IMG/VR virus record: IMGVR_UViG_3300031696_000001
Span: 1 to 62,169 of that record
Direction: 5' to 3' (one strand)
DNA: 62,169 nt
Source of the DNA: a virus
Lineage: Duplodnaviria; Caudoviricetes
Shown: in pieces, positions 1 through 37,546 of the stretch
Layout of the letters: each line of letters begins with the position of its first letter
Numbering within the stretch: position 1 is the first letter of the stretch
Program-made: the position numbers and the translations under genes
Notes under the pieces: generated by a model
The model's input: only the letters and a program-made list of their open reading frames with translations
Told to the model about the DNA's origin: nothing
Databases searched by the model: none

Positions 1-86
1 ATATAAATTCGTTTATAGATTCTTCTTAGCCTACCTCCTGACGCTCCGTTGTTCCAATTTTTAAAATTTAATGTAATTGTTTTCAT
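1..86 (-). CDS. small basic hypothetical protein, 5' part (MKTITLNFKNWNNGASGGRLRRIYKRIY...), probably continuing across the window junction
   Basis: ATG at 86. The frame stays open to base 1 and, if joined to the window end, reads ...ITKRNIINRAR-stop (39 aa). Confidence 0.4.
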   Translation of the reverse strand, partial: MKTITLNFKNWNNGASGGRLRRIYKRIY

Positions 87-99
87 AATTCTATTTCGC

Positions 100-236
100 C
101 TATAATTAGTGAGAGGGACTTTACTCTTAGTTAATTGTATTGGGGAGGTAACCACACCCCCCCTCTACTACTCAGGGCTGAAAAATTAAATGCTTTTAGG
201 TCTTACCCTTTATTTATTATTAATTATTTCCTGAGT
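100..236 (-). ncRNA. candidate structured intergenic RNA
   Basis: ACTCAGG/CCTGAGT inverted repeat (170-176, 230-236). GC-rich hairpin at 142-163 pairs fully only on the minus strand (G-U). Confidence 0.35.
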
Positions 237-254
237 GTTAATTTAAAGTTATGT

Positions 255-461
255 TTATGCTCTTGGCCCTGTGTCTGGTGATAATCCACCTGTTCGTGTT
301 TTACCTCCATACTGATCAGATTTTTCATTGACTTGTATTTTTACCCACACTTCTGCAAAGCGTATCAATTGTTCTTCAGTATACTCTTGCTTTCCTCCTG
401 GATCAAATATTGTATCCCATTCATTTAATTCATCAGAGTGTAAAAATTCTTTTGCTTTCAT
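255..461 (-). CDS. hypothetical protein
   Basis: 68-aa ORF in a tightly packed minus-strand operon. Confidence 0.65.
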   Translation of the reverse strand: MKAKEFLHSDELNEWDTIFDPGGKQEYTEEQLIRFAEVWVKIQVNEKSDQYGGKTRTGGLSPDTGPRA

Positions 462-467
462 AACTTA

Positions 468-851
468 TTATATTTCGTGTTCTTTTTTTATGTGTTCGCT
501 TGCTGGTCTGTTTCTATTATACTGGTCTACATTAAAGTTCTTGTCGTAGTTTCTCCTTTCTGCATCTAACTTATAATATAAGAATGCTTGGAAACCGTTA
601 AGGTGTGAGTCAGTAGGAAAGAAATATTTCCATCCCTTAGACATTCCTTTAGTTATATAATAACAAAAAGCAACCCCTATCTTTCCACTGCTCTTTTTAA
701 AATTAATCACAGCAGTATGATCTGAAGTTGGTATAACCTCATCCACTAAAAATGATTCGTTATTTCCATTTCCTTTTCTATTCTTGTGAGAGAATCTCTC
801 CGCTATTACTTTAGCGAATGTATGTAATTCTTTTGCTATTACTTTTTGCAT
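468..851 (-). CDS. hypothetical protein
   Basis: 127-aa ORF, operon packing. Confidence 0.8.
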   Translation of the reverse strand: MQKVIAKELHTFAKVIAERFSHKNRKGNGNNESFLVDEVIPTSDHTAVINFKKSSGKIGVAFCYYITKGMSKGWKYFFPTDSHLNGFQAFLYYKLDAERRNYDKNFNVDQYNRNRPASEHIKKEHEI

Positions 852-872
852 GGCCAGATAACTACTATGTTA

Positions 873-1124
873 TTATTCATATCGTTTTATAAAAATAGGA
901 GTTTTTTCTCCTACGTAAGATCCTACAGTATTGTAGTAAAAATGTTCAAGAGCATCTTCTTCTTCTATTCCGTCTTCTTCTACTAAACTTTTAATACATA
1001 AATCCATATCATATACAGCTACAGGATTTGATCCTTCTGTTATTCCTATTAAAGCTGACTCGTATCCATCAGCAAGAAGACATTCGTTATCACTCAATTG
1101 TTGCATTAATTCTTCATCTATCAT
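873..1124 (-). CDS. conserved phage hypothetical protein (acidic)
   Basis: LLADGYESALIG...AVYD...ALEHFYYNTVGSYVGEKTPIF resembles a common small phage family. Confidence 0.8.
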   Translation of the reverse strand: MIDEELMQQLSDNECLLADGYESALIGITEGSNPVAVYDMDLCIKSLVEEDGIEEEDALEHFYYNTVGSYVGEKTPIFIKRYE

Positions 1125-1465
1125 TTAATTCTTCTTTTATCTGTTACTATTCTATGGCAGTTAGCACACCTGACCTCACACTTGTCCATCTCTTTTGATA
1201 TTGCATTAATACAATAAGCTTTGTTTGACATATCAGAAATTGCCAGAATCTTATCTCCTTTAACGTGATCAAAATCTAATACTAAAGGGTTATTCTCTCC
1301 ACAATCTATACACTCTGATATTTCTTTTATAGACATTACAAACTCTCTATTTCTTAATCTCTGTATTTTGTTTCTTTTAAATGAACGGGCCTTAATTTCT
1401 TCTTTATTTTTTAAATAATGACGTCTTACTGCTGCTTTCTGATCTTTAGGATCTTTATAAGGCAT
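1121..1465 (-). CDS. HNH endonuclease
   Basis: CIDCG...LDFDHV...CEVRCANCH zinc/HNH motifs. Confidence 0.85.
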   Translation of the reverse strand: MPYKDPKDQKAAVRRHYLKNKEEIKARSFKRNKIQRLRNREFVMSIKEISECIDCGENNPLVLDFDHVKGDKILAISDMSNKAYCINAISKEMDKCEVRCANCHRIVTDKRRIK

Positions 1466-1473
1466 TTTTAATT

Positions 1474-1665
1474 TTACAGTTCATCCTCCATAGACTCAAT
1501 TATATCTTGCAATACTTTTATTAATTCTATACACCTGTCTTGTGCTTGATCATAATCTCTTTTCATCATATCCTCCTTCATATCATAGCCAAATCTATGT
1601 ATATTATCACAGGTAAATTCTATATGGGCTATCATCTTTGAATCTTTAGGAGATACTTTGGCCAT
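1474..1665 (-). CDS. hypothetical protein
   Basis: 63-aa ORF downstream of a promoter-like motif. Confidence 0.7.
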   Translation of the reverse strand: MAKVSPKDSKMIAHIEFTCDNIHRFGYDMKEDMMKRDYDQAQDRCIELIKVLQDIIESMEDEL

Positions 1666-1702
1666 TTGTCTTATTTAACTATTTTTGAACATTAATTATG
1701 GA

Positions 1703-1733
1703 CAAATTTAACAATTTATTTTTCTTTACCAAC
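1703..1733 (-). promoter_or_regulatory. Bacteroidota sigma-70-type promoter
   Basis: Minus strand GTTG-N19-TAAATTTG (-33/-7 boxes). Confidence 0.55.
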
Positions 1734-1748
1734 TATTTTAGATCTTTT

Positions 1749-1949
1749 TTAATTTAATTTTTTAAACTTCTCCTTAAATATCTTATCTATAGTTTCTTTA
1801 GATACATTAAAAAACCTTTCTACTTCAGTAACATTATTAGCTACCGAAAAAGATTTTAATATTTTATCTTTCTTTTCTTGGGTTAGACTGAGAAATGTTT
1901 TATTTTTCTTTGGTCCTCCACGTTTTATTTTAAGGCTTGGATGTGTCAT
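1749..1949 (-). CDS. hypothetical protein, possible HTH
   Basis: 66 aa; NVTEVERFFNVSKETIDKIF is HTH-like. Confidence 0.6.
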   Translation of the reverse strand: MTHPSLKIKRGGPKKNKTFLSLTQEKKDKILKSFSVANNVTEVERFFNVSKETIDKIFKEKFKKLN

Positions 1950-2263
1950 TTTATACTTAATTTTAAATTTAGTAGATCTAAATACTCATCCATAGATATA
2001 AGCTGTACATCTGCTAAAATAATATACTTTGAATCATCCTTTATTACTTCTAATGCAAAAGTAATTGGTTCTTCATCATCATCCACAATTACACCTCCTA
2101 AAACTGTAGATATTAATTTATTTGTAGGAACTGAATCTACATTTTGCTCAATAAACTTTGCAATTTTTATTCCAGTCCTAATATCCATGTCAGAAATACT
2201 TTCCATAAAGTCTTCTGCTACATCATAGCCCGCCTCCCTTATATACTTCTGTTCTGCACCCAT
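1946..2263 (-). CDS. hypothetical protein
   Basis: 105-aa ORF with overlapping start/stop coupling. Confidence 0.75.
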   Translation of the reverse strand: MGAEQKYIREAGYDVAEDFMESISDMDIRTGIKIAKFIEQNVDSVPTNKLISTVLGGVIVDDDEEPITFALEVIKDDSKYIILADVQLISMDEYLDLLNLKLSIK

Positions 2264-2471
2264 GTTTTTCTAATTCTTTTAATCTATACTCTTGTAATTT
2301 TGACAGTTTACCTGTTGGTCTTTTTACTTCTGAAAATAATACATCACAATTAGGAGGAATTGCAAGGAGATCGGGGATTCCATTCTTATTAGTCTTTATT
2401 AGCTTAAGAACATAGTATCCTTCCGACTCCAGTTGCTTAATCCTCTTTGCTTGTATTTGTTGTTCGGTCAT
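2223..2471 (-). CDS. VRR-NUC domain nuclease (Holliday junction resolvase-like)
   Basis: TEQQIQ...GIPDLLAI...FSEVKRPTGKLSKLQ; typical position next to an SF2 helicase. Confidence 0.9.
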   Translation of the reverse strand: MTEQQIQAKRIKQLESEGYYVLKLIKTNKNGIPDLLAIPPNCDVLFSEVKRPTGKLSKLQEYRLKELEKHGCRTEVYKGGGL

Positions 2472-2641
2472 TTCTTATGTGAACTCTCTGTTTGTCCGCA
2501 GTTAATACACCACCTCTCTTCATCTCCCATAAAATCATCATAAGTGTAAAACATATCGCATTTTTTTGGTTTGGTTAATACTTTAATAGTACCAACACTA
2601 CCTCCTTCTCCTTGTTCTTCTTTTTTTATTCCTTTTTTCAT
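2468..2641 (-). CDS. small hypothetical protein (57 aa, CxxC), below the ORF-track cutoff
   Basis: MKKGIKKEEQ...WCINCGQTESSHKK fills the gap and has an ATGA overlap with the VRR-NUC gene. Confidence 0.6.
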   Translation of the reverse strand: MKKGIKKEEQGEGGSVGTIKVLTKPKKCDMFYTYDDFMGDEERWCINCGQTESSHKK

Positions 2642-2650
2642 AATTATTAT

Positions 2651-3883
2651 TTACAAATTTATAAATTTTCTTCTAAAGTGTGTAAGGGTGTAGTCTTTCT
2701 TTTTTATTACAGCCTTGTATATATCACTCTCTATACCTCCTTTACTAAATATCCAATAGATATCATTCTTAAGTCTATCCTTAGTTGTCATCCGATCTCT
2801 ACTCTGCCAATATGATGTAGCACTAAAGTCAATATTGTAATATACTAAGGCATTAGCCTTTCGTAAACTAATACCTTCTCTTCCACTTACAATTTGAAGT
2901 GCTATATTTTTATCAGTGGTATTAAAACAATCTAACTCCGTACATATGTCATCTCCAAAAACTTCTTTAATAGCATTTAACTCTTCTTTAAATTTATAAA
3001 ATATACCTATTTTAAATCCTCTAAATGTTTTCTTTATAAACTCAGCTTTACTTAAATCAATTACCATAGAATTACCACTCTCAAACTTAATGGTTCCGCT
3101 ACATAGCTGATGTACCTTAGTCATTAGTTTAACTGACGTGTCAGCCAATATTACCTCAGAATCACCCTCTACTACTAAATCTCTTTTTAGTTTGCTTATA
3201 AGCTTTGTGGTGGATGATTTCATCTCAACCTCTAATACATGCTCATTGGTTTGTACAACAAACCCAGCGTCCTTCTGACTAAAGTTTATAGTATAAGGAG
3301 ACATAGCCTCAATAATTTTTTTACTTCCTTTTGAATAGTCATTGATATATAGACCTCCTATCTTTTTTTGAGTAACCTTTACATAGTCCTTAGCAAATTG
3401 ATAGAAATTTTTATAATGTGCAAAAGGATTATTGGGTATAAAAGAAATTTGATTATACATCTGAGAATAAGACTCTGGTGTTGGAGTCCCACTAAGTAAT
3501 ATTACATAAGGATTAGACCTAAATATAATGTTCTTTACTTTTTTAGTTCTACCACTTGGTTTTGGAAATGCTCCCATACCATGGGCCTCATCACAGATAA
3601 CTACATCCCATCCAGTCTGTCTAATTTTATGTAGAGACTCATAGTTTATAACCTCTAACTCAAACTGAGGCATTAGTAATTCAAAGTCATTAACAATACT
3701 TGATATTGCTTTCTTCTTTGTAATAAATAAAACTTTCTTAGCATCAATAAGATCACAAATTCCTAAACTTGTTAAAGTCTTTCCAGTCCTAACCTCCATA
3801 GCTAAGTAAAGAAATCTATGTTGTTTTATTATACCCACACCATCTGATATAATATGATTTTGGTACTCTCTAAACTCTATCAT
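2651..3883 (-). CDS. SF2 (SNF2-like) DNA helicase
   Basis: MEVRTGKT Walker A variant, DEAH, SGTP motif III, QSRDR motif VI. Confidence 0.9.
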   Translation of the reverse strand: MIEFREYQNHIISDGVGIIKQHRFLYLAMEVRTGKTLTSLGICDLIDAKKVLFITKKKAISSIVNDFELLMPQFELEVINYESLHKIRQTGWDVVICDEAHGMGAFPKPSGRTKKVKNIIFRSNPYVILLSGTPTPESYSQMYNQISFIPNNPFAHYKNFYQFAKDYVKVTQKKIGGLYINDYSKGSKKIIEAMSPYTINFSQKDAGFVVQTNEHVLEVEMKSSTTKLISKLKRDLVVEGDSEVILADTSVKLMTKVHQLCSGTIKFESGNSMVIDLSKAEFIKKTFRGFKIGIFYKFKEELNAIKEVFGDDICTELDCFNTTDKNIALQIVSGREGISLRKANALVYYNIDFSATSYWQSRDRMTTKDRLKNDIYWIFSKGGIESDIYKAVIKKKDYTLTHFRRKFINL

Positions 3884-6281
3884 TTGTATATTCTTGATGT
3901 TTTGATTTACTTATATAACTAATCCATTTACCTAACATATCTTTTCCTTGTAAAGGATTACAATCAAACTTATAATTTCCATAAGATATGAGCCATTTAC
4001 CAAACTTTATTCGGCTCACAGTCATTTTTGCTTTTGGACCATAGTCAGGATACTCATTAATAAAATCTAAATATAAATCATTTTGATAAATTCTTGTATC
4101 TAAACATAGCTTAGGGTTATCTATCCCATCAATTATTCCGCACCACTCAATAAATTCGTGAGATGTATCGGCAGATAGTACACGAGTCTTAAGATTTACA
4201 AATTCACTTTTTAACAAACCTTTTTCTAAATATAATTGTAAACACGTGATCATATAATTATCAAACTGACACCAATCATTATCATTCCATTCTCCAAACA
4301 TTAACTTACCGAACTCTACCAATGGAGTAAACTCTTTAGTATAAAATTGACTAAGTTCTAACTCCCACTTTCTACGAGCAAAAGAATTACCCTTTCCTTT
4401 TATAGCATAGTTAGTAGTGATAGCCACCTTTGGAGATTTACTAAATGGTATCTTAATAGAATCTTTATTTTTCTTTTCTAAAGTTAATCCTTCCGTAACC
4501 ACACTAAACAATCTCTCAAAGTCAAAGTGTTTTTTTACATCATCAAAACATAATATTTGAGTGTCAGCGGAAACTAATTGATAGGCAAATGATTTATCAA
4601 AGTTAAATGACTTACCATCTATCACTACTAACTTTTTCATTTGTGCTAACCCATTCATAAATAATCCCTTCCCTGTTCCTCCTTCAGGATTGTCAGATAT
4701 AACCTCATCATTTAGTATTGTAGCTGGACAATAGGATAAGTTTTTCCATCCATGTAATAAGTATCCAGTAGTAGATTCCATAGATAATGTTCTTTTAGCA
4801 TCCCCTCCCGATATATTATATATAAAGGTTTTAAAATCACAATCAGTAACATCACATACATCAAATACTCTATCAATAACATGATCCTTCCAAACATAAC
4901 CTCCTAAATCTAAATAATCAATAGGAATAATTTCATTTTTAGTTATCTTAACTGCACAATTAATGTAGTAAAGATATGCTGTGTTTTTAGTGTCAGCTAC
5001 AAAGTATACATTTATAGATCCAAGTAGAGTTAGAAATTCTTCTCTAAAATATTTTACACTTTCAGCAAAATAATTATATATACTCTTATCATCTATGTCT
5101 AAAAGAAAAGTTAATACAAAATCTTTTATTTCTTTTTCAGATGTATGGTCAATTAAATTGTTAGTTACCTTTACAAAAACATAACTTTTACTTCCCTCGG
5201 GACTAAACTTATAAAATCCATTATCTTCTAAGAATTGTTTAAAAGATATATGTATAATTTTTACAACTCCCTTCTCACTTTTTGTCCAAAACTTTTGTTC
5301 GTCTTGTTCTTCCTCTAACCTTTTTACTACATTATCTAAAACCTGATCCTCAACATCTAAGTTCTCTGCAATCTCAGATTTAATTTCAGAGGCAGTAGCC
5401 CCCTTTCTTAATTTTCTTTTAACATTATTTACCTTTTCCTCATCCTCATAATATTTAGTTCCAAAGTTTTGTACTTGCTTATATGCTGAATTAATAGTTC
5501 TTATTATTTCATTTTTTGGAAAATCTTTGCTTACAAAATTACCCATAACATACTCTGCTAAAGTTTTATTAATTCCAAAGTCATTAAACGCTGATGCCAA
5601 TATAAATACATTTTGATTTCTCTCTCCACTATTCAAACCATACTTTCTTTCCCACCACTTTAAAAGAATTTCTATAATCTTATTCTCATTAGTTATTGGT
5701 ATAGTCTGTACATCTTTATGCTTAACAACCTCTTGATACTCTTGCTCTATAACTTGATTAAAAATACTTGACTGCTCATTAATATATATTAACGGATCAT
5801 AGGATTCATAACATACTCTTGATACATTCTTACAAGATATATCAAAGTATTCACTATCATAATGATATTGTAAAGAATTAAAAAATTGTTTATGTGTTTC
5901 TTCTTCTGCTGGTATCTTAACTAATACCTTTAATCCTAAACCACTTGGTGATATAAAAACAGAAAATGTATATCTGTCTTTAGTTAGGGTTTCTTTTTTT
6001 TCCAACATATCTTTCTCTGAGGGAAAGTTATCAAAGTCTAAACACATAATTCCACTATGCTCAACTAAAGAAGAATCATTTCTTTTAGTAAATTTACCAC
6101 TAAAACATATAGCTGGTAATGATTGCTTTAATTTATTTCTTATTTCTTTATCCTTTTCTCCTCTTATTGACTTTACTATGTCTTGGGATGATCCTACTTG
6201 AATCCTTTCTAATATTCTTGATACGTCTCTATAGAAAGGTTGAGCAGTATCTTTAATATCTTTAAATATTGTTATTTCCAT
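3870..6281 (-). CDS. primase-helicase (VirE-N/BT4734-like N-terminus, PriCT, P-loop helicase)
   Basis: LPAICFSG, CLDFD, FISPSGLGLK, GERNQNVF, EGGTGKG Walker A, CFDD Walker B, TTNY. Confidence 0.88.
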   Translation of the reverse strand: MEITIFKDIKDTAQPFYRDVSRILERIQVGSSQDIVKSIRGEKDKEIRNKLKQSLPAICFSGKFTKRNDSSLVEHSGIMCLDFDNFPSEKDMLEKKETLTKDRYTFSVFISPSGLGLKVLVKIPAEEETHKQFFNSLQYHYDSEYFDISCKNVSRVCYESYDPLIYINEQSSIFNQVIEQEYQEVVKHKDVQTIPITNENKIIEILLKWWERKYGLNSGERNQNVFILASAFNDFGINKTLAEYVMGNFVSKDFPKNEIIRTINSAYKQVQNFGTKYYEDEEKVNNVKRKLRKGATASEIKSEIAENLDVEDQVLDNVVKRLEEEQDEQKFWTKSEKGVVKIIHISFKQFLEDNGFYKFSPEGSKSYVFVKVTNNLIDHTSEKEIKDFVLTFLLDIDDKSIYNYFAESVKYFREEFLTLLGSINVYFVADTKNTAYLYYINCAVKITKNEIIPIDYLDLGGYVWKDHVIDRVFDVCDVTDCDFKTFIYNISGGDAKRTLSMESTTGYLLHGWKNLSYCPATILNDEVISDNPEGGTGKGLFMNGLAQMKKLVVIDGKSFNFDKSFAYQLVSADTQILCFDDVKKHFDFERLFSVVTEGLTLEKKNKDSIKIPFSKSPKVAITTNYAIKGKGNSFARRKWELELSQFYTKEFTPLVEFGKLMFGEWNDNDWCQFDNYMITCLQLYLEKGLLKSEFVNLKTRVLSADTSHEFIEWCGIIDGIDNPKLCLDTRIYQNDLYLDFINEYPDYGPKAKMTVSRIKFGKWLISYGNYKFDCNPLQGKDMLGKWISYISKSKHQEYTNDRV

Positions 6282-6525: not shown

Positions 6526-6780
6526 TTAGAAAGGTAAATCTTCCTCAACTGCTGGTGCAGTTTCTTTCTTTGGCTCTGGTTTCCATGTGTCAACCGCTAC
6601 ATAATGAGTATTTCCGTACTCATCTACCGCCTTTTTTTCTTGTACAAGTAGTTTGATGTACTTCTTTCCGTTGTACTCAAACATGTGTTCTTGAGGTAAG
6701 TCTGTTAAACATACGCTACAAGCAACTTGGTTTCCATCAAATTTTGATGTTCCGTTTCCTACATAGATCTTTTCTGACAT
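6526..6780 (-). CDS. putative single-stranded DNA-binding protein
   Basis: Small beta-rich protein ending EEDLPF, next to recombination genes. Confidence 0.7.
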   Translation of the reverse strand: MSEKIYVGNGTSKFDGNQVACSVCLTDLPQEHMFEYNGKKYIKLLVQEKKAVDEYGNTHYVAVDTWKPEPKKETAPAVEEDLPF

Positions 6781-6901
6781 GATTTAATTTTTATAAATTA
6801 TTTTTTCCAACTGATTCATTGTAGCCTCCATGAGATTATCTCTTTCGGCTTGAGTATATAGATTGGTTGGAATTTCAATCCATACACTTTTTTTTGTTAC
6901 A

Positions 6902-10894: not shown

Positions 10895-11064
10895 TATTTT
10901 ATTTTTAGTCCATCGTTAATTTTAATAGCTTTCTTTAAGCTAAGTGTCCAGTCTTTGATAACATTATCAATATTTTTATCTATTGTAGCATTATGCTTAC
11001 CCTTAGATTTTTTAAGTTTCTCAATCTCTTGGATTAAGAATTCTTGTAATTTGTTATTTTTCAT
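10894..11064 (-). CDS. small hypothetical protein (56 aa)
   Basis: MKNNKLQEFL...; TAATG coupling to the next gene. Confidence 0.6.
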   Translation of the reverse strand: MKNNKLQEFLIQEIEKLKKSKGKHNATIDKNIDNVIKDWTLSLKKAIKINDGLKIK

Positions 11065-11069
11065 CTTAT

Positions 11070-11345
11070 TTATATTAAATTAATCATTACAGTACCAGCA
11101 TCATACCACTCAGAGTACCATCCTCTTTTCTTTAACTCTTCTTCCCATTTATTAAGTACTCCAAATACTCTGTTATTATGATCCTCAGAATAGTAGTCAT
11201 ATATTACCTCTCCTTTATACTCCTCCATAGATTCTCCACATAAGTGTATACCTCCAGTGCCTCCGCTAAAGTCTTCTGATGTACCTACAAACTCTTGATG
11301 TTTTGATAACCAATTCATCATTTGGTTTCTTTTTATTGCTTTCAT
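11070..11345 (-). CDS. hypothetical protein
   Basis: 91 aa, ...GWYSEWYDAGT. Confidence 0.8.
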   Translation of the reverse strand: MKAIKRNQMMNWLSKHQEFVGTSEDFSGGTGGIHLCGESMEEYKGEVIYDYYSEDHNNRVFGVLNKWEEELKKRGWYSEWYDAGTVMINLI

Positions 11346-11377
11346 TGTTTATTTAAATTTGATTATTAATTCGTTTG

Positions 11378-11409
11378 CAAAGATAAGTAATATATATTTA
11401 TTACACAAG
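11378..11409 (-). promoter_or_regulatory. Bacteroidota-type early promoter
   Basis: CTTG-N20-TATCTTTG on the minus strand. Confidence 0.7.
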
Positions 11410-11430
11410 TTTTATACAACTTATTTACAC

Positions 11431-11778
11431 TTATCGGTAGTCATCACAAAATAATTGCCATTCCATCCATCGCTCAATCTTTACCAGCTCTTTGATGGAT
11501 GTTAATTGCACATTTAATATTAATATTGATTTATCATTCTCTTTACTTATCTCATCACTATACTTTGGCATAATATCATCTCCATCATTGTTATACCAAA
11601 ACTCCCCAATAATTTCTCCACATATTGCCTCTATCTCAATTAAAGAATCATTGTAGTATCCTCCAGTACCTTTGTGCAATGCCTTTGAAATCTTATTAAC
11701 TATTGATTGCATCTCCTTAATTTGCTTATCTTGTTCTTGTGGTATCTCAACCTCGTATACATCGTTAAATACTTTCAT
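11431..11778 (-). CDS. hypothetical protein, paralogue of 12453..12782
   Basis: Shared QIKE..S...KI......TGGYYNDS(L/I)I motif. Confidence 0.8.
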   Translation of the reverse strand: MKVFNDVYEVEIPQEQDKQIKEMQSIVNKISKALHKGTGGYYNDSLIEIEAICGEIIGEFWYNNDGDDIMPKYSDEISKENDKSILILNVQLTSIKELVKIERWMEWQLFCDDYR

Positions 11779-11875
11779 TTTGTGTGCTTTAAATTTTAGG
11801 AATCAACTGTTGACTCCTTGTACCACCAAAACCTCACTACTTTCGTAGCAAGGCAAATGGTGTCCAACACACAAT
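11779..11875 (-). ncRNA. structured RNA motif copy A (GNRA hairpin, GGTA linker, RGGARTCAR/TTGATTCCT hairpin)
   Basis: Hairpins at 11824-11862 and 11798-11818; homologous to 13562-13655 with compensatory changes. Confidence 0.7.
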
Positions 11876-12160
11876 TTATCTATTTAAGGCATTCATTATA
11901 CCTTTACCTATTATCCTTTGTCTTTCTCTAAATTCAGAACAATCTATCTCTACCTTATCAAACCATTTTACATCCTTACTATTATCTAATTTGATGATGA
12001 CATCTCCATATTTATTTAGGATCTGTTGCTTGTACCTAATAAGACTATCTTTATCATACACTAATCTCATACTATCTCCTCCATTAGGCATATGTACTTG
12101 TCCTAAAAATATCTCCATTAACATATCATATGTTAACCATCTTAATTTCATTCTTATCAT
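11876..12160 (-). CDS. hypothetical protein
   Basis: 94-aa ORF. Confidence 0.75.
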   Translation of the reverse strand: MIRMKLRWLTYDMLMEIFLGQVHMPNGGDSMRLVYDKDSLIRYKQQILNKYGDVIIKLDNSKDVKWFDKVEIDCSEFRERQRIIGKGIMNALNR

Positions 12161-12165
12161 ATCTA

Positions 12166-12450
12166 TTATATTTCAGTTAATATTCCGTTAATCTCCTCAT
12201 ACTCATAGTCTTCAGGACATTCCCATTCAGTCCAATAGTAAATTTCATCATTGTAAGCCCATTCAAGTAGTCCATCATCATCTAATAAACTTAGAGGTAT
12301 ATCGTTTCCCTCTTCATCTTCAGCAGTCCAATCCTTACTCCTGAGTAGCTTAATTAAGTCCTTCTTATGCTTGATATATTCATTGTCATTGAATACATAA
12401 CCATCATTCATTCCCTCTCCCGTTACCGAGCAACATCTTGCATATTTCAT
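12166..12450 (-). CDS. hypothetical phage protein
   Basis: MKYARCCSVTGEGMNDGY...YYWTEWE. Confidence 0.8.
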   Translation of the reverse strand: MKYARCCSVTGEGMNDGYVFNDNEYIKHKKDLIKLLRSKDWTAEDEEGNDIPLSLLDDDGLLEWAYNDEIYYWTEWECPEDYEYEEINGILTEI

Positions 12451-12452
12451 AA

Positions 12453-12782
12453 TTATCTTTTTATTTCCTCCATTAGTAATTCAACCTTTACCATCTTAGT
12501 AATTGATGATAATGTTTCTTTTAAGTCCTTGATAGTAACCTTATTTTGAAGTCCTATCTCAACACTATAAACCATACTCTCCTCCTTTAAGTAGTATCCA
12601 TCAGCATCCATTATTCCATTTGCATAAGCAAACTCATCCCATATATAGCTTGAATCATCAGTACAGATTATACTATCATTATAGTAACCTCCCGTTGATT
12701 TACCTACTTGATTAGCAATCTTTCTCATTAAGGATGATACCTCCTTAATCTGTATCTGTTGAATTTGTGTATCTAATTTCAT
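12453..12782 (-). CDS. hypothetical protein, paralogue of 11431..11778
   Basis: Shared TGGYYNDS motif; lies directly downstream of the hammerhead. Confidence 0.8.
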   Translation of the reverse strand: MKLDTQIQQIQIKEVSSLMRKIANQVGKSTGGYYNDSIICTDDSSYIWDEFAYANGIMDADGYYLKEESMVYSVEIGLQNKVTIKDLKETLSSITKMVKVELLMEEIKR

Positions 12783-12808
12783 GTTGTTGGTGTTAATTGG
12801 TATCTTAT

Positions 12809-12863
12809 GATACTGACACTACTTGCGTAGTGTTTCGGCTAATAGAAGCCTCATCAGAGTATC
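12809..12863 (-). ncRNA. type I hammerhead ribozyme
   Basis: GAUACU-CUGAUGA-GGCU(UCUAUU)AGCC-GAA-ACACUAC(GCAA)GUAGUGU-C^AGUAUC: complete core, three perfect stems, GUC cleavage triplet. Confidence 0.93.
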
Positions 12864-12865
12864 TA

Positions 12866-13561
12866 TTATTTGTTATGATGGTGTATGTGAGTCTCTATCA
12901 AATCATCAGAGTATCTCTTGATTACCTCATTCCAATCTATAAGGTTTATATCATTTGCATTGAATTCATCCTCTCTAACTAATCTGAAGAATGTTTGTAA
13001 GATATCCTCTTTCCAATACTCAGTATTATCTAACACTAAACATAATCGGTAGGTTTGGATGTTTGTGTATCCGTTAACCTTTACACTATCCATAATTGAT
13101 TTACCAATTTCATCTCCATTCTCATCAATACAAGCATCATTCTGAGCATCTACCCAAGCATCTGATTGATATTTTTTAACATCAACTGCATCTCCATTCT
13201 CATCAAAATCTCCTAAGATATCCTCATCTCTGCAATCAGGACATATATCACAGAAATCATGTTCTTCTCTTGTCATGTCTTTATCACATACCTCACAAAT
13301 AGGTTCAAACTCCTCTCCAGCTATTCTCGGTAGGAAATGCTCATCCTCTGCATATATACCTTTGAAATCATGCAGTACATCCGTTAACCTATGCTCTAAG
13401 TTATTTACTACTGCTATTACCCATTCTGGGTTTAATTCTACTACTCTGCCTATTGCCGTCTTACTATCTACTCCAAAGTTTAACTGCCAATCTTGGCTAA
13501 GGAAAAAATTCATTGGCATAAGGAAATTTAATCTTGGTACTAACATCTCATCTCTTTTCAT
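12866..13561 (-). CDS. hypothetical protein with Cys cluster (likely start MKRDEML at 13561)
   Basis: CEVC...CDICPDC and two DENGD repeats. The ORF-track start at 13588 lies inside an RNA hairpin, while 13561 follows the TTAAARCACACAA leader. Confidence 0.75.
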   Translation of the reverse strand: MKRDEMLVPRLNFLMPMNFFLSQDWQLNFGVDSKTAIGRVVELNPEWVIAVVNNLEHRLTDVLHDFKGIYAEDEHFLPRIAGEEFEPICEVCDKDMTREEHDFCDICPDCRDEDILGDFDENGDAVDVKKYQSDAWVDAQNDACIDENGDEIGKSIMDSVKVNGYTNIQTYRLCLVLDNTEYWKEDILQTFFRLVREDEFNANDINLIDWNEVIKRYSDDLIETHIHHHNK

Positions 13562-13655
13562 CTTGTGTGTTTTAATGGTAGGAATCAATTGCTGATTCCC
13601 TCTACCTCGAATAACTCACATATCTCTATGCAAGTCGTTCGGTAGTGGTGTTAGG
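13562..13655 (-). ncRNA. structured RNA motif copy B
   Basis: Hairpins at 13602-13645 and 13580-13600; same layout as 11779-11875. Confidence 0.7.
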
Positions 13656-13868
13656 TTAGATAGTATCGTATCCTAACTCAGATAACCATTCGTTATAAAA
13701 TTTGTACATTTCCTCCTTAGTACGGTACATTATACCTGCTGAAGTAGGGTGATTGGATATACTCTGATAGTAAGTAATACATCCGTTACCATCTGACATC
13801 TTCTCCTTATAAAGATATATCTTGTATCCCTCGCAAACCTTGTCCATATGTAATGTGTGTAATAGCAT
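13656..13868 (-). CDS. hypothetical protein
   Basis: 70-aa ORF. Confidence 0.7.
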   Translation of the reverse strand: MLLHTLHMDKVCEGYKIYLYKEKMSDGNGCITYYQSISNHPTSAGIMYRTKEEMYKFYNEWLSELGYDTI

Positions 13869-13886
13869 AATTTATTCTCTTTTTTA

Positions 13887-14162
13887 TTAGTTATTTAGGT
13901 ATAATTCTGATTTCTCAATGTTCTTGATTTCATACTTAGGTAATTCATCTAAGTACATGGTGTAAACATCCCATATTGACTCGCACTTATCATTTATCTT
14001 ATCCCATTCCCTCCCTTCTTCCCCAATTAGATTGGAAATTATATCTCTTGCATCATTACAGGAATGATACTTGCTTAACCATGTTGTTGCCTTGTTTACA
14101 AGGGATTGATTCTTCTTGTTTACTGCTGTAATTGTCTCATCGTAGACTCTAATTTTACTCAT
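13887..14162 (-). CDS. hypothetical protein (first early gene)
   Basis: 91 aa, preceded by TTAAAGCACACAATT and a promoter. Confidence 0.8.
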   Translation of the reverse strand: MSKIRVYDETITAVNKKNQSLVNKATTWLSKYHSCNDARDIISNLIGEEGREWDKINDKCESIWDVYTMYLDELPKYEIKNIEKSELYLNN

Positions 14163-14202
14163 AATTGTGTGCTTTAAGTTAATGTTGTGTTTAAATTCTG
14201 TG

Positions 14203-14233
14203 CAAAGATAGTTTATTAAATTGGATAATCAAC
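14203..14233 (-). promoter_or_regulatory. Bacteroidota-type early promoter
   Basis: GTTG-N19-TATCTTTG on the minus strand. Confidence 0.7.
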
Positions 14234-14435
14234 TATAATTTCAAAAGAATTGTTGTTCCATATACTCAAGATACTGTAAGTGATTGATAATCAGCATACA
14301 TAAGATATCTTAATTTACCTGGTAAATTGGTGATATGTTTATGTGTTTGGGGTGTCGATGGGGTACTAAGAGACATCTCTTTGTCTCTATTAATTCTCTT
14401 TAAGTTTATAATGTGGGGAGTATTGGGGAATCCGT

Positions 14436-14460
14436 AGTCATTAAGGAGTCATTAAGGAGT
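14436..14460. repeat. tandem 11-bp repeat AGTCATTAAGG x2 plus AGT
   Basis: Read directly from the sequence. Confidence 0.9.
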
Positions 14461-14491
14461 AAGTAATGCGTGTAACGAGGGAACAGTAGGG

Positions 14492-14534
14492 GTGTGCATG
14501 GGGCTGAGACTGGCAGTGTGCATGGGGCTGAGAC
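14492..14534. repeat. 19-bp direct repeat GTGTGCATGGGGCTGAGAC x2 with 5-bp spacer
   Basis: Copies at 14492-14510 and 14516-14534. Confidence 0.9.
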
Positions 14535-14669
14535 AAAAAGACGGATTTAAATCAATGAAAATTTAGCTTTTCCAGAAAACTTTTGAAAAAAATATTCGTT
14601 TCCTGAGAGGGGGTGCTGTGCGTATGACATATAATAACCCTCAACCCCGAGACGTCTAAAAAAATTTTT

Positions 14670-14677
14670 TATCTTTG
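14670..14677 (+). promoter_or_regulatory. -7 promoter box TATCTTTG (first promoter of the plus arm)
   Basis: Matches TAnnTTTG, 14 nt before ATG 14692. Confidence 0.65.
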
Positions 14678-14691
14678 CTAAAATAAACACT

Positions 14692-14739
14692 ATGAAAAAG
14701 AAAACTAAAAAGAAAGTAAAAACAACAAAAGGATATTAA
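14692..14739 (+). CDS. 15-aa Lys-rich micropeptide MKKKTKKKVKTTKGY
   Basis: Lies between the promoter and the next ATG (1-nt gap). Confidence 0.45.
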   Translation: MKKKTKKKVKTTKGY

Positions 14740-14740
14740 T

Positions 14741-14968
14741 ATGAAAAAAATGACAAACCCATTTATAGGCTCTGACAATGTAGACGGCTTATATGTAAAG
14801 GACGGTAGACTAATGAATGAACGTGAGGACGGTGAGACTGGTATAGCACAGGCTTCTCGTTATAGAAAGCAAATGAAAAAACAATACAAGATTGATTGTA
14901 TAGCGGACGGTATTGAGCGTGCTGAGATGAGAAAAAAAATGGATCGTTTCGATAAATACGATTACTAA
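14741..14968 (+). CDS. hypothetical protein
   Basis: 75-aa ORF followed by a terminator. Confidence 0.75.
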   Translation: MKKMTNPFIGSDNVDGLYVKDGRLMNEREDGETGIAQASRYRKQMKKQYKIDCIADGIERAEMRKKMDRFDKYDY

Positions 14969-14992
14969 ATAATTTATTTGTTGACTGTTGAG

Positions 14993-15035
14993 AAGGGGTT
15001 GGATGCATTGATTTGATGTTCACCCCCTTTTTTTT
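14993..15035 (+). terminator. intrinsic terminator
   Basis: AAGGGG...CCCCCTT imperfect hairpin followed by a T-run. Confidence 0.55.
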
Positions 15036-15040
15036 ATATC

Positions 15041-15236
15041 CATGACAAGAACCTGTCATACTCATGATAGCTTAAAAACAAACTCGTCATAGCCTAACTA
15101 ATTGGTTTCTATTCTTTTATATTTATTTATGACAAGATGACAAGAATAAAGTAGTTATTCTATAAAGAAAAGTATAAAGAAGAGTAGTGTATATATATAT
15201 ATATAAATAGAAAACTTTTTTTTATCATATTGTCAT
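15041..15236. repeat. origin-like element 2: inverted ATGAY pairs flanking an (AT)n tract
   Basis: ATGAC 15129 and 15137; (AT)n ~15190-15205; ATCAT 15224 and GTCAT 15232; extra ATGAC/GTCAT at 15042-15090. Confidence 0.6.
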
Positions 15237-15277
15237 ATTATATTTTAAATATAATTCTTTACTTTATTTTATTTTAT

Positions 15278-15285
15278 TATCTTTG
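15278..15285 (+). promoter_or_regulatory. -7 box TATCTTTG upstream of groEL
   Basis: TTATTATCTTTGC. Confidence 0.65.
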
Positions 15286-15317
15286 CAGCAAATTAAATCA
15301 ATTTAAATTCTATTACA

Positions 15318-16898
15318 ATGCAAGAACAGGGATACGTACCTAAGGACCTTCACTTCGATGAGTCTGCTCGTGAAAAACTAATATCGGGAATCTCCAAAAT
15401 ATCTAATGCAGTTAAGAGTACTCTTGGGCCACAAGGGCAGACAGTGCTTATTGAATCTACAGAACATACTCAAGGATTAACAGTAACTAAAGATGGTGTT
15501 ACTGTAGCTAAGAGTATATTCCTTATTGATCCTGTAGAGAACTTAGCGGTTAGGATGATGAAGCAAGCTTCGGAGAAGACGGCTAACACCGCAGGTGATG
15601 GAACCACTACAGCAATTGTTTTGACTGAGGCATTAGTAAAGGCTGGTCAGAAGTATATTAGTAAAAAGGATAATACTATCCAGGTTGTTAGAGAGATTAG
15701 AGCTGCAGGGGATAAGCTATTAGAAAGAATTAAAAAAGAGTCAAGAGAGGTAACTGACGAAATGCTTGTAGATATTGCAACTATCTCTGCAAATAACGAC
15801 AAGGAGATTGGCGATATCATTGCTAAGGCATACAAAGAGGTTGGTAGAGATGGTATAGTTACTGTAGAGAGATCTCAAACTGATAAGACATATGCTGAGG
15901 TCACTAATGGTATAAAGGTTGATAGAGGGTATACTTCTACAATGTTCATTAATGACCAAAGAAAAGACGAGTGTATTTTGGAAGGGGTTAAGGTTCTCTT
16001 ATGCGATACTGAGATTACTAATATCCTGCAAATTGAGAATATACTTAAACCAATTATTAATTCTGGTGACAAATTACTGATCATAGGTAACTGTTCGACT
16101 AATGTTATTAATACTTTAGCTGCAAATGTGCAGCGTAATGGGTTAAAGTTCTGTAATATTATGGTACCATCCTTTGGATACAAGGCTCACGAGCTAATGC
16201 AAGACATCGCATTCTCTGTAGGAGCTAAATATTTTTCAGAACAAACAGGAGATGACTTATCTTTAATCAGAATGGAGGACTTAGGTATAGCTGATAAAGT
16301 TATAGTAGGTAAAGACTCTACCATTATTATTAAGGATGGTGAGATTACTAAGGAAATAGAGGATCGTGTAGAAGAGCTTAGAGTGCAGCAAACAACTTTA
16401 ACGGCAAAACATGAGCGTGAGTTTGTGAATGAGCGTATAGCGTCCTTAATTGGAGGTATAGGTTGTATTCAAGTAGGTGCTACATCAGACATTGAGCAAA
16501 AAGAAAAATTCGACAGAGTCGATGACTCTGTCTGTGCAGTGCGTTCTGCACTACAGGAAGGAATTGTAGCGGGAGGTGGGTTGTTATTATCTACTTTAGC
16601 TAAAGAGTTTAAGGGAGATAGTGCATGTGATAGAATATTAAAGGAAACTTTAGAAGCACCTATAGCACAGATATTAAAAAATGCAGGATTAGATGTTACT
16701 AAAATATATACTAAAGCATTAAAAGAAAATGAAGGTTATAATGTGGTTACTGGTGAATTTGGGGATATGTTTGAGATGGGTGTTATTGATCCTGCTAAGG
16801 TTACAATACAAGCCCTATCTAACGCAATCAGCGTTGCAACCACAATACTTACTACGAACGCTATTATTACTCATGCAAGAATTCATACCGATGCTTAA
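15318..16898 (+). CDS. groEL: phage-encoded chaperonin GroEL
   Basis: STLGPQG, VTKDGVTVAK, AGDGTTTA, GIVAGGG, GVIDPAKV; lacks the GGM tail. Confidence 0.96.
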   Translation: MQEQGYVPKDLHFDESAREKLISGISKISNAVKSTLGPQGQTVLIESTEHTQGLTVTKDGVTVAKSIFLIDPVENLAVRMMKQASEKTANTAGDGTTTAIVLTEALVKAGQKYISKKDNTIQVVREIRAAGDKLLERIKKESREVTDEMLVDIATISANNDKEIGDIIAKAYKEVGRDGIVTVERSQTDKTYAEVTNGIKVDRGYTSTMFINDQRKDECILEGVKVLLCDTEITNILQIENILKPIINSGDKLLIIGNCSTNVINTLAANVQRNGLKFCNIMVPSFGYKAHELMQDIAFSVGAKYFSEQTGDDLSLIRMEDLGIADKVIVGKDSTIIIKDGEITKEIEDRVEELRVQQTTLTAKHEREFVNERIASLIGGIGCIQVGATSDIEQKEKFDRVDDSVCAVRSALQEGIVAGGGLLLSTLAKEFKGDSACDRILKETLEAPIAQILKNAGLDVTKIYTKALKENEGYNVVTGEFGDMFEMGVIDPAKVTIQALSNAISVATTILTTNAIITHARIHTDA

Positions 16899-16983: not shown

Positions 16984-17224
16984 GTACATTGTAATTAAAA
17001 TGATTAAAGAAGAGCTTAGAACTGAGTCTGGTCTTTTATTGTCTGCTCAAGATGCTTCAGAGTTTAGGTATAAAAAAGGAGAAGTAATTAAGGAAGGTAC
17101 TGATGTGAGTGTTATTACTACTGGAGATATAATTTACTATGATGCAGGAGCTGGTCATAATATGTTAATTGAAGAAAATCCTTACACCATTATTCAGGAG
17201 AGAGATGTCGTTGTTGTTTTATAA
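16967..17224 (+). CDS. groES: co-chaperonin GroES
   Basis: MKPIGKYIVI...TESGLLL...GEVIKEG...GDIIYY...IIQERDVV. Confidence 0.9.
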   Translation: MKPIGKYIVIKMIKEELRTESGLLLSAQDASEFRYKKGEVIKEGTDVSVITTGDIIYYDAGAGHNMLIEENPYTIIQERDVVVVL

Positions 17225-17663
17225 ATTCATTCATCTCTATAATCATATTTCTATAAACCTTATCCATATAAGAGGCATCATGTCTAAATAAAGGATTTGC
17301 CCTTGGTGTCTCACCAATCTCCTCTCCGTTAAGTTTCTTGTATATAGTATTTATAAGTCGCTTACCCTTATATGATAACTCATATAGAGTTGTTTCATTA
17401 CCCTGTCTCTTTCTCCAAACATGTATCCATCCTTCTTTAAGGAGCTCATGAAACCTGGACTCATCCCAAGACATACACTCTTCAAACTCTTTAAACTTTG
17501 TTTTATTGAATATTTGTTCGCTGTATAGAAAGAATAACATGTCTATAGCGGGAGTTCCGACTTTGTATTTGGCTTTAGCCCAATACCTTATCACCCTCCA
17601 GTACTTCATGTAATCATGAGAGGGTTGAACTCTATCGTAATTCTTACGTATTATATTAGCCAT
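17190..17663 (-). CDS. putative winged-helix DNA-binding regulator (likely start MANIIRK at 17663)
   Basis: Lone antisense gene in the late arm; RFHELLKEGWI...YELSYKGK resembles a MarR/wHTH wing. Confidence 0.65.
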   Translation of the reverse strand: MANIIRKNYDRVQPSHDYMKYWRVIRYWAKAKYKVGTPAIDMLFFLYSEQIFNKTKFKEFEECMSWDESRFHELLKEGWIHVWRKRQGNETTLYELSYKGKRLINTIYKKLNGEEIGETPRANPLFRHDASYMDKVYRNMIIEMNEFIKQQRHLSPE

Positions 17664-37502: not shown

Positions 37503-37546
37503 GTTTATATTTGCACTTTATTAACCCATTAAAACCTTTTTATAAA

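Follow-up and report, generated by a model that had tools for sequence, protein, structure and literature searches.

At the head of the left arm of a tailed-phage genome (Caudoviricetes; IMG/VR record IMGVR_UViG_3300031696_000001, analysed over its whole length of 62169 nucleotides [nt] and called the window here) lies an early operon of seven genes, punctuated by three structured RNA elements: a predicted hammerhead ribozyme and two folded modules, motif A and motif B (Table 1). The operon is read leftward from a promoter whose -7 element, TATCTTTG, occupies 14210-14203 of the minus strand with a TTG about 22 nt upstream, and between 14210 and the next promoter at 11385 there is no intervening TAnnTTTG on that strand; a sigma-70 promoter scan is uninformative for this host type. 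The preliminary description of this DNA had taken the region for one early transcription unit, with a promoter at 14203-14233 followed by three long gaps holding motif B, the hammerhead and motif A, and in silico this is what we find: a single promoter serves all seven genes. The six intergenic gaps measure 18, 94, 83, 2, 5 and 97 nt, the long ones being exactly three, and these carry, in order, motif B (94 nt), the hammerhead (83 nt) and motif A (97 nt). Neither the seven operon proteins nor the next three downstream belong to any Pfam or PHROGs family; the call of genes 4 and 7 as paralogues is based on a GTGGYYNDS stretch contained in both, recognized in the translations by eye only.

Table 1. 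Features of the early operon and of the start of the opposite arm, in window positions (aa, amino acids; bp, base pairs; ORF, open reading frame; P0 to P3, helices of the folded modules).
Feature	Position	Strand	Remarks
Cpn60/TCP-1 family chaperonin, 526 aa	15318-16898	+	E 4e-56
Promoter, Bacteroidota-type (TTG ... TATCTTTG)	14203-14233	-	heads the seven-gene early operon
Leader copy 1, CA-rich	14165-14177	-	precedes gene 1 ATG at 14162
Gene 1, 91 aa, ORFan	13887-14162	-	from ORF list
Gene 2, 70 aa, ORFan	13656-13868	-	from ORF list
Motif B (B-type module)	13562-13655	-	P1 13645-13638 with 13611-13602
Motif B, P2 hairpin	13636-13627 with 13622-13613	-	GAGA loop
Motif B, P3 hairpin	13600-13593 with 13587-13580	-	leader copy 2 next, 13563-13575
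Leader copy 2, CA-rich	13563-13575	-	end of motif B, precedes gene 3 ATG at 13561
Gene 3, 231 aa	12866-13561	-	relatives encode pieces as separate genes
Type I hammerhead ribozyme (predicted)	12809-12863	-	predicted cut between 12815 and 12814
Leader of predicted 3' cleavage product	12783-12814	-	5-bp hairpin 12813-12800, then CA-rich variant leader to ATG 12782
Gene 4, 109 aa	12453-12782	-	paralogue of gene 7
Gene 5, 94 aa	12166-12450	-	from ORF list
Gene 6, 94 aa	11876-12160	-	from ORF list
Motif A (A-type module)	11779-11875	-	P0 anti-leader 11874-11866 with leader 11788-11780
Motif A, P1	11862-11858 with 11828-11824	-	predicted fold
Motif A, P2	11854-11845 with 11840-11831	-	GAAA loop
Motif A, P3	11818-11810 with 11806-11798	-	leader copy 3 at 11780-11792
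Leader copy 3, CA-rich	11780-11792	-	end of motif A, precedes gene 7 ATG at 11778
Gene 7, 115 aa	11431-11778	-	from ORF list
-7 element of next promoter, closing the unit	11378-11385	-	TAnnTTTG scan

Several of these genes share a CA-rich leader. The 13-nt sequence TTAAARCACACAA recurs without mismatch at three places in the 62169 nt, always on the minus strand and with an ATG 1-2 nt after it; shuffled sequences give an expectation of 0.01 copies and none of 100 shuffles reaches three; the copies stand ahead of genes 1, 3 and 7, just as had been described. When up to two mismatches are allowed, the count is seven where 7.9 would be expected, and only the exact copies are therefore informative. 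Two of the three come after a hairpin, and all three have an A at -3. Gene 4 (start 12782), behind the hammerhead gap, has a variant CA-rich leader; the tightly coupled genes (gaps of 2-18 nt) have no leader, and the later operons of the window share a different, AT-rich one. Translation initiation in Bacteroidetes is reported to be tuned by an unstructured leader and an A at -3, not by a Shine-Dalgarno sequence (PMC6847099).

Read along the minus strand from 12863 to 12809, the element in the gap between genes 3 and 4 consists of an open stem I of 6 bp, CTGATGA, a 4-bp stem II with a 6-nt loop, GAAA, a 6-bp stem III with a GCAA loop, the GTC cleavage triplet and the 3' strand of stem I; with stem I open and stems II and III closed by loops, this is the arrangement of a type I hammerhead. 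Related loci were obtained via their Sak-like protein and hammerheads were then located by script, which gave 14 complete copies (12 of them distinct) in the window and 11 loci, the latter representing 10 contigs (L005 and L026 are one contig). All 14 are intergenic and on the gene strand, starting at or just after a stop codon and ending 17-35 nt before the next ATG. In the alignment of the 12 distinct sequences the core columns (CTGATGA, GAAA and GTC in the window) are invariant in 12/12 copies except at free position 7; 99.5% of 199 cells pair, as against 23-46% for slid partners, and 14 of the 17 pairs show compensatory changes. A published criterion is that hammerheads have no mispair directly beside the core (PMC3088659): the core-adjacent pairs 1.1-2.1, 10.1-11.1 and 15.1-16.1 are T-A, G-C and A-T in the window, and the core-adjacent alignment columns (6-52, 14-27 and 31-50) are paired in all 12 copies. 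Canonical core and covariation together point to a genuine and conserved hammerhead that is predicted to cleave itself. The predicted 3' product would have a 5-bp hairpin as its first 14 nt, reusing a strand of stem I, with the unpaired CA-rich leader next; the same layout of hammerhead, hairpin and leader is shared by L015, L010, G025 and G031 among the relatives.

A model built from the 12-sequence alignment (R2) matches 14 of 29 related viral records and five of the seven among these that are at least 90% complete, as well as three of 37 terminase-anchored records, many of which are fragments without the early region. It also matches one of five GenBank phage records (four cultured isolates and one uncultured assembly), that of the cultured Flavobacterium phage vB_FspP_elemoB_14-3B. 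The hammerhead of this phage lies on the minus strand of NC_062741.1 at 17213-17270 (L165, 1714-1771; 48.9 bits, E 1.9e-13), and the annotated GTG start of gp69 falls inside it; an ATG 22 nt past the ribozyme seems the likelier start. Variant forms occur in L010, where the hammerhead at 6757-6875 has a 58-nt insertion in the loop of stem III and a second copy at 5048-5181 has an altered core (CTGAAGAT) with the 3' hairpin and CA leader unchanged. In the window, a 14-nt direct repeat is found 52 nt apart on the minus strand, one copy (12916-12903) in the 3' coding part of gene 3 whereas the other (12864-12851) makes up stem I of the hammerhead together with its CTGATGA box. The L005 homologue shares the coding copy and has no hammerhead behind it.

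Motifs A and B had been described as two different motifs, a distinction that we do not retain: they are 71% identical over 65 nt, both are found by one covariance model, and on this comparison they are two forms of one structured-RNA family of the sense strand. Their common architecture comprises a GNRA-capped P2, a short P1 closing P2 over a T-rich bulge, a GTA-containing junction, and a P3 that leads into the leader; minimum free energy z-scores against shuffles are -6.6 and -4.8 for the two. In motif A the leader doubles as the 3' strand of a closing helix, P0, and in A-type copies at large the pairing partner of the CA leader, or of what remains of it, is a stretch that begins 0-2 nt past the upstream stop codon. 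Three A-type copies have an extra hairpin, making a four-way junction.

Copies of the family were gathered by the covariance model, by pattern scans and by searches of the whole records behind the loci, and about 15 distinct ones were found in eight viral records (the window included) and three metagenome contigs. The A type is present in the window, G007, G008, G024, G025 (cut by the contig end), G026 and the three metagenome contigs, the B type in the window, G025, G026 and, three times, in G031; G044 has two short forms without P3 and with weak scores. A metagenome pattern scan (120 stretches) gave four model-confirmed loci among the 80 listed (L092, L118, L080 and L048) and a false one (L056). 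A further A/B pattern scan gave one chance match (L035), an exact-pattern scan for the P3 hairpin in viral contigs gave two matches, both in unrelated coding sequence, and a scan with the B-type leader pattern returned only two contigs already known.

The fold itself is well conserved among these copies. In a nine-sequence alignment 95.5% of 224 cells pair (33-46% when slid) and eight of 29 pairs are compensatory, and for P2, in a 15-sequence alignment, 98.5% of 135 cells pair and six of nine pairs are compensatory. At one position of P2, 10 of the 15 sequences have a T-G pair, and the fold therefore exists only in gene-strand RNA. P1 is paired in every inspected copy, but its register differs from copy to copy and it could be counted in the nine-sequence alignment alone; all copies that have P3 form a hairpin there, which cannot be aligned column by column. 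Few unpaired positions are conserved beyond TT...G..GTA. Since the sequences are few and related, the covariation figures show conserved structure, not function.

We could not assign the modules to any RNA class already catalogued. An Rfam cmscan of 11300-14700 at E up to 10 gave no match on A or B, and none at gathering level in the window; ARAGORN found no tRNA gene in the window and there was no tRNA-clan match at E up to 10. The P3 loops, of 3-5 nt, are not T-loop-like, as those of tRNA-like punctuation would be. A literature search by name only found no paper on the family. The modules were also considered as degenerate hammerheads and rejected as such, there being no CTGATGA or cleavage triplet in place. 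As to resemblances between the two kinds of element, the apex of motif A P2 (11848-11835) differs from stem III of the hammerhead (12829-12816, minus strand) at one of 14 positions, and the hammerheads of several relatives have as their stem III the CTACC/GGTAG helix found in B-type P1; part-swapping between module types is suggested.

The placement of the modules in related phages is highly regular. In the five tabulated genomes that carry A/B modules, nine of ten hammerheads lead into a CA-rich leader and an ATG within 17-27 nt, and the tenth, in G026, has a B module 22 nt downstream in the same gap. All three B modules in the tabulated genomes likewise lead into a CA-rich leader and ATG (the G026 instance was read separately). 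G031, a nearer relative by its terminase (87%), reads promoter, gene, B, gene, B, gene, B, gene, hammerhead, gene, the same leader standing before each; G026 has promoter, gene, hammerhead and B adjoining, three more hammerheads and A; and G025 has B, hammerhead, hammerhead, A. An order of B, hammerhead(s), A is thus common to the window, G025 and G026.

Comparison of the operon with 18 related loci by blastn gave similarity in islands: the hammerhead with its leader (95% to L015 and 79-87% to others), motif A (78-83%), a block at the junction of genes 5 and 6 (12241-12143; 81-88%), short stretches in and just before gene 1 (67-79%), the upstream non-coding block, the next promoter and two domains of gene 3. 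Genes 1 and 2 are similar in short stretches only, and gene 4, most of genes 5 and 6, and gene 7 found no match in these 18 loci. The same A-type module sits behind different genes in G008 and G026, and L005 has separate genes in place of the window's single gene 3. The earlier suggestion that the repeats act as recombination points gains from this breakpoint comparison, in which the modules sit at mosaic breakpoints between related phages. As the modules are conserved and the genes between them are not, the modules may also serve as homology patches for cassette exchange; the pattern fits such a role and is observational only.

Among the relatives, L005 has a punctuation that differs from that of the window and is denser. 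In its syntenic early region (1-4690), which also has one hammerhead, there are twelve small early genes, each behind a variable hairpin, GTYAGTTACAAA and a shared ACTACAATG start context, and L027 has 10 hairpin-GTYAGTTACAAA elements. We looked at the L005 elements by eye as possible half-sites of a trans-cut hammerhead and as integron attC-like sites, and the flanking bases are unfit for either. Downstream of a TATATTTG promoter, at about 2990-3185 of L005, lies a structured non-coding stretch. Its 5' part is an exact antisense of the phage's own shared leader, with 9 nt against each half and the start codon included; the 3' part comprises an acceptor-like stem of 8 bp together with a 5-bp arm whose 7-nt loop resembles a T-loop. 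ARAGORN calls neither a tRNA nor a tmRNA in this stretch, which is a candidate for a trans-acting anti-leader RNA.

The genome in which the operon lies has a CheckV completeness of 100% and a G+C content of about 32%. Its two arms diverge from a non-coding region, leftward over 1-14.2 kilobases (kb) and rightward over 14.7-62 kb: the left arm has small ORFans and then replication and recombination genes (Sak-like annealing protein, exonuclease, primase/helicase and helicase), and the right arm begins with the Cpn60-family chaperonin, includes the terminase and structural genes, and is closed by one ORF of 3127 aa (51502-60885, plus strand). The divergent region (14233-14700) may be an origin or control region; a block within it (14595-14699) is 79-86% identical in four relatives and contains the rightward promoter, with TATCTTTG at 14670 on the plus strand, and short direct repeats lie around 14450-14545. 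The terminase is 72.6% identical to that of an uncultured podovirus record, 45% to those of Flavobacterium elemo phages and 31-38% to those of phages of Cellulophaga and Tenacibaculum, and TATCTTTG recurs ahead of many window genes in the manner of Bacteroidota-type promoters. Because of these terminase relatives and promoters, we infer that the host is a marine member of Flavobacteriia. At least 599 viral contigs matched the terminase peptide patterns, and blastn of the operon region against 50,697 phage records gave no match.

How, then, might the punctuation work? The explanation we find best for the whole, and on which we are about evenly divided, combines a hammerhead that cuts itself with A/B modules that fold locally, stay uncut and insulate the CA leaders. 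Host RNA polymerase would read the first leftward operon from its one TAnnTTTG promoter as a seven-gene RNA, in which every gene not tightly coupled to its predecessor would have a self-contained module in its 5' untranslated region, made of a folded RNA and a conserved, unstructured CA-rich leader that ends 0-2 nt ahead of the ATG. The hammerhead, to judge by its core and covariation, would cut after the C at 12815, leaving the upstream mRNA to terminate in the ribozyme hairpins and gene 4 to keep a 32-nt leader with a 5'-OH and a small hairpin at its start. Motifs A and B would fold locally without a cut, and the leader would stay single-stranded whatever the upstream cassette, the same effect as the hammerhead would reach by cutting. 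In the A type, the anti-leader just past the upstream stop would in addition mask the leader through P0 until a terminating ribosome melts P0, and this melting would couple gene 7 to gene 6. Since initiation in Bacteroidetes depends on leader structure, insulating the leader from the upstream cassette would have value. The predicted mean unpaired probability over -18 to +6 is 0.82 for motif B, 0.88 for the hammerhead (0.93 after the cut) and 0.60 for motif A, the last becoming 0.86 with the stop-proximal 37 nt held open. For A and B themselves this fold-only reading is the preferred one, at modest odds, and the G026 tandem is compatible with a B module that acts uncut.

A number of observations count against this explanation. 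The best Rfam match of the window hammerhead is RF03152 (RAGATH-1-hammerhead) at 24.5 bits, against a gathering score of 56.3, and no gathering-level Rfam hammerhead match was found in the window or in nine related loci, the gathering score being a curation threshold and not a structural criterion. There is no obvious tertiary contact between a loop and stem I in the window hammerhead; loop II is complementary to 6 nt that overlap the 5' flank of stem I, in an AT-rich context and with an inconsistent partner (in relatives, possibly the 3' flank). The A/B family is patchy, its model (R3) matching five of 34 and two of 37 records, many of them fragments, and none of the five GenBank phage records (four cultured isolates, one uncultured assembly) carries the module. 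B-type copies have no P0, and in other phages the P0 helix of A-type copies stops 14-17 nt short of the ATG; only for the A copy of the window is it clear that the start region would be masked. Pure insulation does not account for the conservation of the T-rich bulge and of the GTA junction, and from the adjoining hammerhead and B module in G026 it follows that the two module types are not simply interchangeable.

Contigs from RNA libraries also bear on the matter. Four runs recorded as RNA, from two studies, cover 34-82% of the 62169 nt, in the form of assembled contigs only; the stretch 13540-13666, with motif B, lies outside all four runs and most of motif A outside X18 and X19, and strain variants in the same samples break contigs at module sites, with loose ends at 13561 and 14169. 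Contigs bridge the predicted hammerhead cut in three of the four runs (X17, X20 and X18, in X18 by only 33 nt) and span motif A in two of the four. That they cross the hammerhead site means that uncleaved RNA or contaminating DNA exists, and the RNA-library contigs decide nothing about cleavage.

Chief among the alternatives for A and B, unlikely and yet a serious contender, is that the modules are protein-dependent processing signals, with a host double-strand-specific or other endonuclease cutting the P1-P2 arm or P0; this accords with the preliminary description, which had one early transcript cut into separately stabilised mRNAs. The upstream mRNA would then retain a 3' hairpin, the downstream mRNA would begin with P3 and the leader, and A/B would be the enzymatic counterpart of the hammerhead. 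Such a role would suit modules that share both their slots and their downstream design (hairpin plus CA leader) with the hammerhead, the hammerhead standing before gene 4 and motif A before its paralogue gene 7. The P1-P2 arm, moreover, forms about 13-19 bp of irregular helix interrupted by a bulge or an internal loop (nearly continuous over 17 bp in G026), and the 3' side of the internal loop is conserved, as a nuclease site might be. However, RNase III sites are unpredictable from sequence, the helices of most copies are under two turns, the tandem in G026 would be redundant, the contigs that span motif A speak against cutting there, and the 20 left-arm proteins scanned include no phage-encoded RNase. 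A wider proposal seems to us rather improbable: that A/B constitute a new processing or control module of Flavobacteriia phages, used interchangeably with hammerheads (as a new self-cleaving class or a guide for a host nuclease), that the A-type anti-leader adds a ribosome-operated switch on the shared leader, and that together with the CA leader the modules make a portable "expression cassette boundary" by which ORFans would be shuffled with their expression kept.

It is decidedly doubtful that P2 and the T-rich run act as a weak intrinsic terminator or attenuator, giving a step-down along the operon, with P3 and the leader belonging to the next gene. A GC-rich hairpin does stand directly before a T-rich run of 4-5 nt (TTTT, TTATT, ATTT or TATT) in 15 of 15 copies, but a terminator consensus scan of the minus strand over 11000-15400 gave none, the clear terminators of this genome (for example those before the promoters at 37506 and 37890) have 9-10 T, and P1 pairs across the T-run with compensatory changes that a terminator would not need; contigs continue through motif A in the two runs already mentioned. 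Association with hammerheads has in the past led to twister-sister, pistol and hatchet, and A/B might by analogy be a new self-cleaving ribozyme class sharing slots with hammerheads. The modules co-occur with hammerheads in the same operons, have a conserved fold with a GNRA-type loop and an invariant short junction, and match no Rfam family. We nonetheless hold this very improbable: very few unpaired nucleotides are conserved, sequence is unconstrained in the P3 loop and along the 5' side of the internal loop, G044 has short forms without P3, and in G026 a B module stands in tandem with a hammerhead. Least probable of all, we think, is an operator role, in which an RNA-binding protein of phage or host origin, or an RNA acting in trans, would use the modules to silence every leader-bearing early gene at once; the identical leaders of genes 1 and 3 might in that case be trans targets of the motif A anti-leader. 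In its favour, the 13-nt leaders are identical on three genes, motif A holds the sole sense-strand copy of the anti-leader (11867-11874), L005 encodes a promoter-driven small RNA with a 5' part antisense to that phage's shared leader, and sequence conservation is seen in the 3' half of the module; against it, the complementarity amounts to only 9-11 nt, no candidate protein was identified and B-type copies have no P0.

The insulating arrangement that we prefer has counterparts, each of them partial, among known systems. The early transcript of T7 is polycistronic and made by the host polymerase, and its intercistronic RNase III sites are thought to leave protective hairpins at the mRNA ends. 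The window resembles this in having structured intercistronic elements in what would be an early polycistronic RNA of the host polymerase. Unlike the T7 sites, A and B are modules of two or three helices with a junction, not single hairpins with an internal loop, and one window site is a predicted self-cleaving ribozyme; of the two sets, it is the T7 sites that are known to be cut by RNase III.

For hammerheads in phages, clustered copies flanking prophage genes have been reported and proposed to cut long phage RNA into gene-length mRNAs, with cleavage shown in vitro (Perreault et al., 2011; PMC3088659); in the same report a hammerhead of halovirus HF2 is placed 13 nt ahead of an early gene, and a 5' end has been mapped to within 3 nt of its cut. 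Like the phage hammerheads described there, those of the window type are canonical and lie between genes of one transcription unit. They differ from that set, as far as the main account describes it, in coming from marine flavobacterial podophages, all under the Rfam gathering scores, in being fused to a conserved CA-rich leader, and in alternating with a non-hammerhead module in the same slots. The supplementary alignments of that report might already hold members of this group; a name-based literature search found no paper on hammerheads in flavobacterial phages among the matches listed.

RiboJ, a synthetic insulator, consists of a ribozyme and a 23-nt hairpin before the ribosome-binding site (PMC6206723). 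In the window, L015, L010, G025 and G031 the hammerhead is similarly predicted to strip away upstream context and leave a hairpin at the new 5' end; unlike RiboJ as described, these elements are natural, lie within an operon rather than behind a promoter, and have a leader without a Shine-Dalgarno sequence. The PeSL cassettes of T4-type phages, a promoter and terminator stem-loop between non-essential ORFans (Arbiol et al., 2010; PMC2839356), are likewise small conserved cassettes at the breakpoints of modular shuffling, as in the window, where similarity islands coincide with modules; in contrast to the PeSLs of that account, the window modules have neither a promoter motif nor a terminator-grade T-run. 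In Cluster K mycobacteriophages, the SAS is a 13-nt repeat within a few nt of the start codons of non-structural genes of different families, about half of the copies having an inverted repeat just upstream (ESAS), and a part in translation was suggested for it (Pope et al., 2011; PMC3203893). The likeness is one of layout only, a short conserved start-adjacent sequence and an upstream inverted repeat with unrelated sequences: the SAS as described has a Shine-Dalgarno core, whereas the window leader is CA-rich and serves a host group in which initiation does not rely on Shine-Dalgarno sequences (PMC6847099), and the upstream structures of the window are larger and include a ribozyme.

The preliminary description had proposed the whole as an undescribed system. 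For the hammerhead part this is too strong, because Perreault et al. (2011; PMC3088659) proposed the processing of phage transcripts in the account they give; it can be kept for the A/B folded module alone, which, by comparison with the sequences covered here, looks new. What stands of that interpretation in silico is the single promoter, the genuine and conserved hammerhead, the nature of A and B as structured sense-strand RNAs and the position of the modules at mosaic breakpoints.

The operon thus places a predicted ribozyme in a very regular design of structured module, fixed leader and gene, which is conserved across a clade of phages abundant in the sea. The processing hypothesis of 2011 becomes directly testable, because a cultured relative carries the same kind of hammerhead. 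Should A/B prove to be cut, or to gate translation, they would represent a second natural "insulator" part; and if the arrangement works as proposed, it would help to explain how cassettes of early ORFans can be exchanged with their expression kept, in hosts without Shine-Dalgarno recognition.

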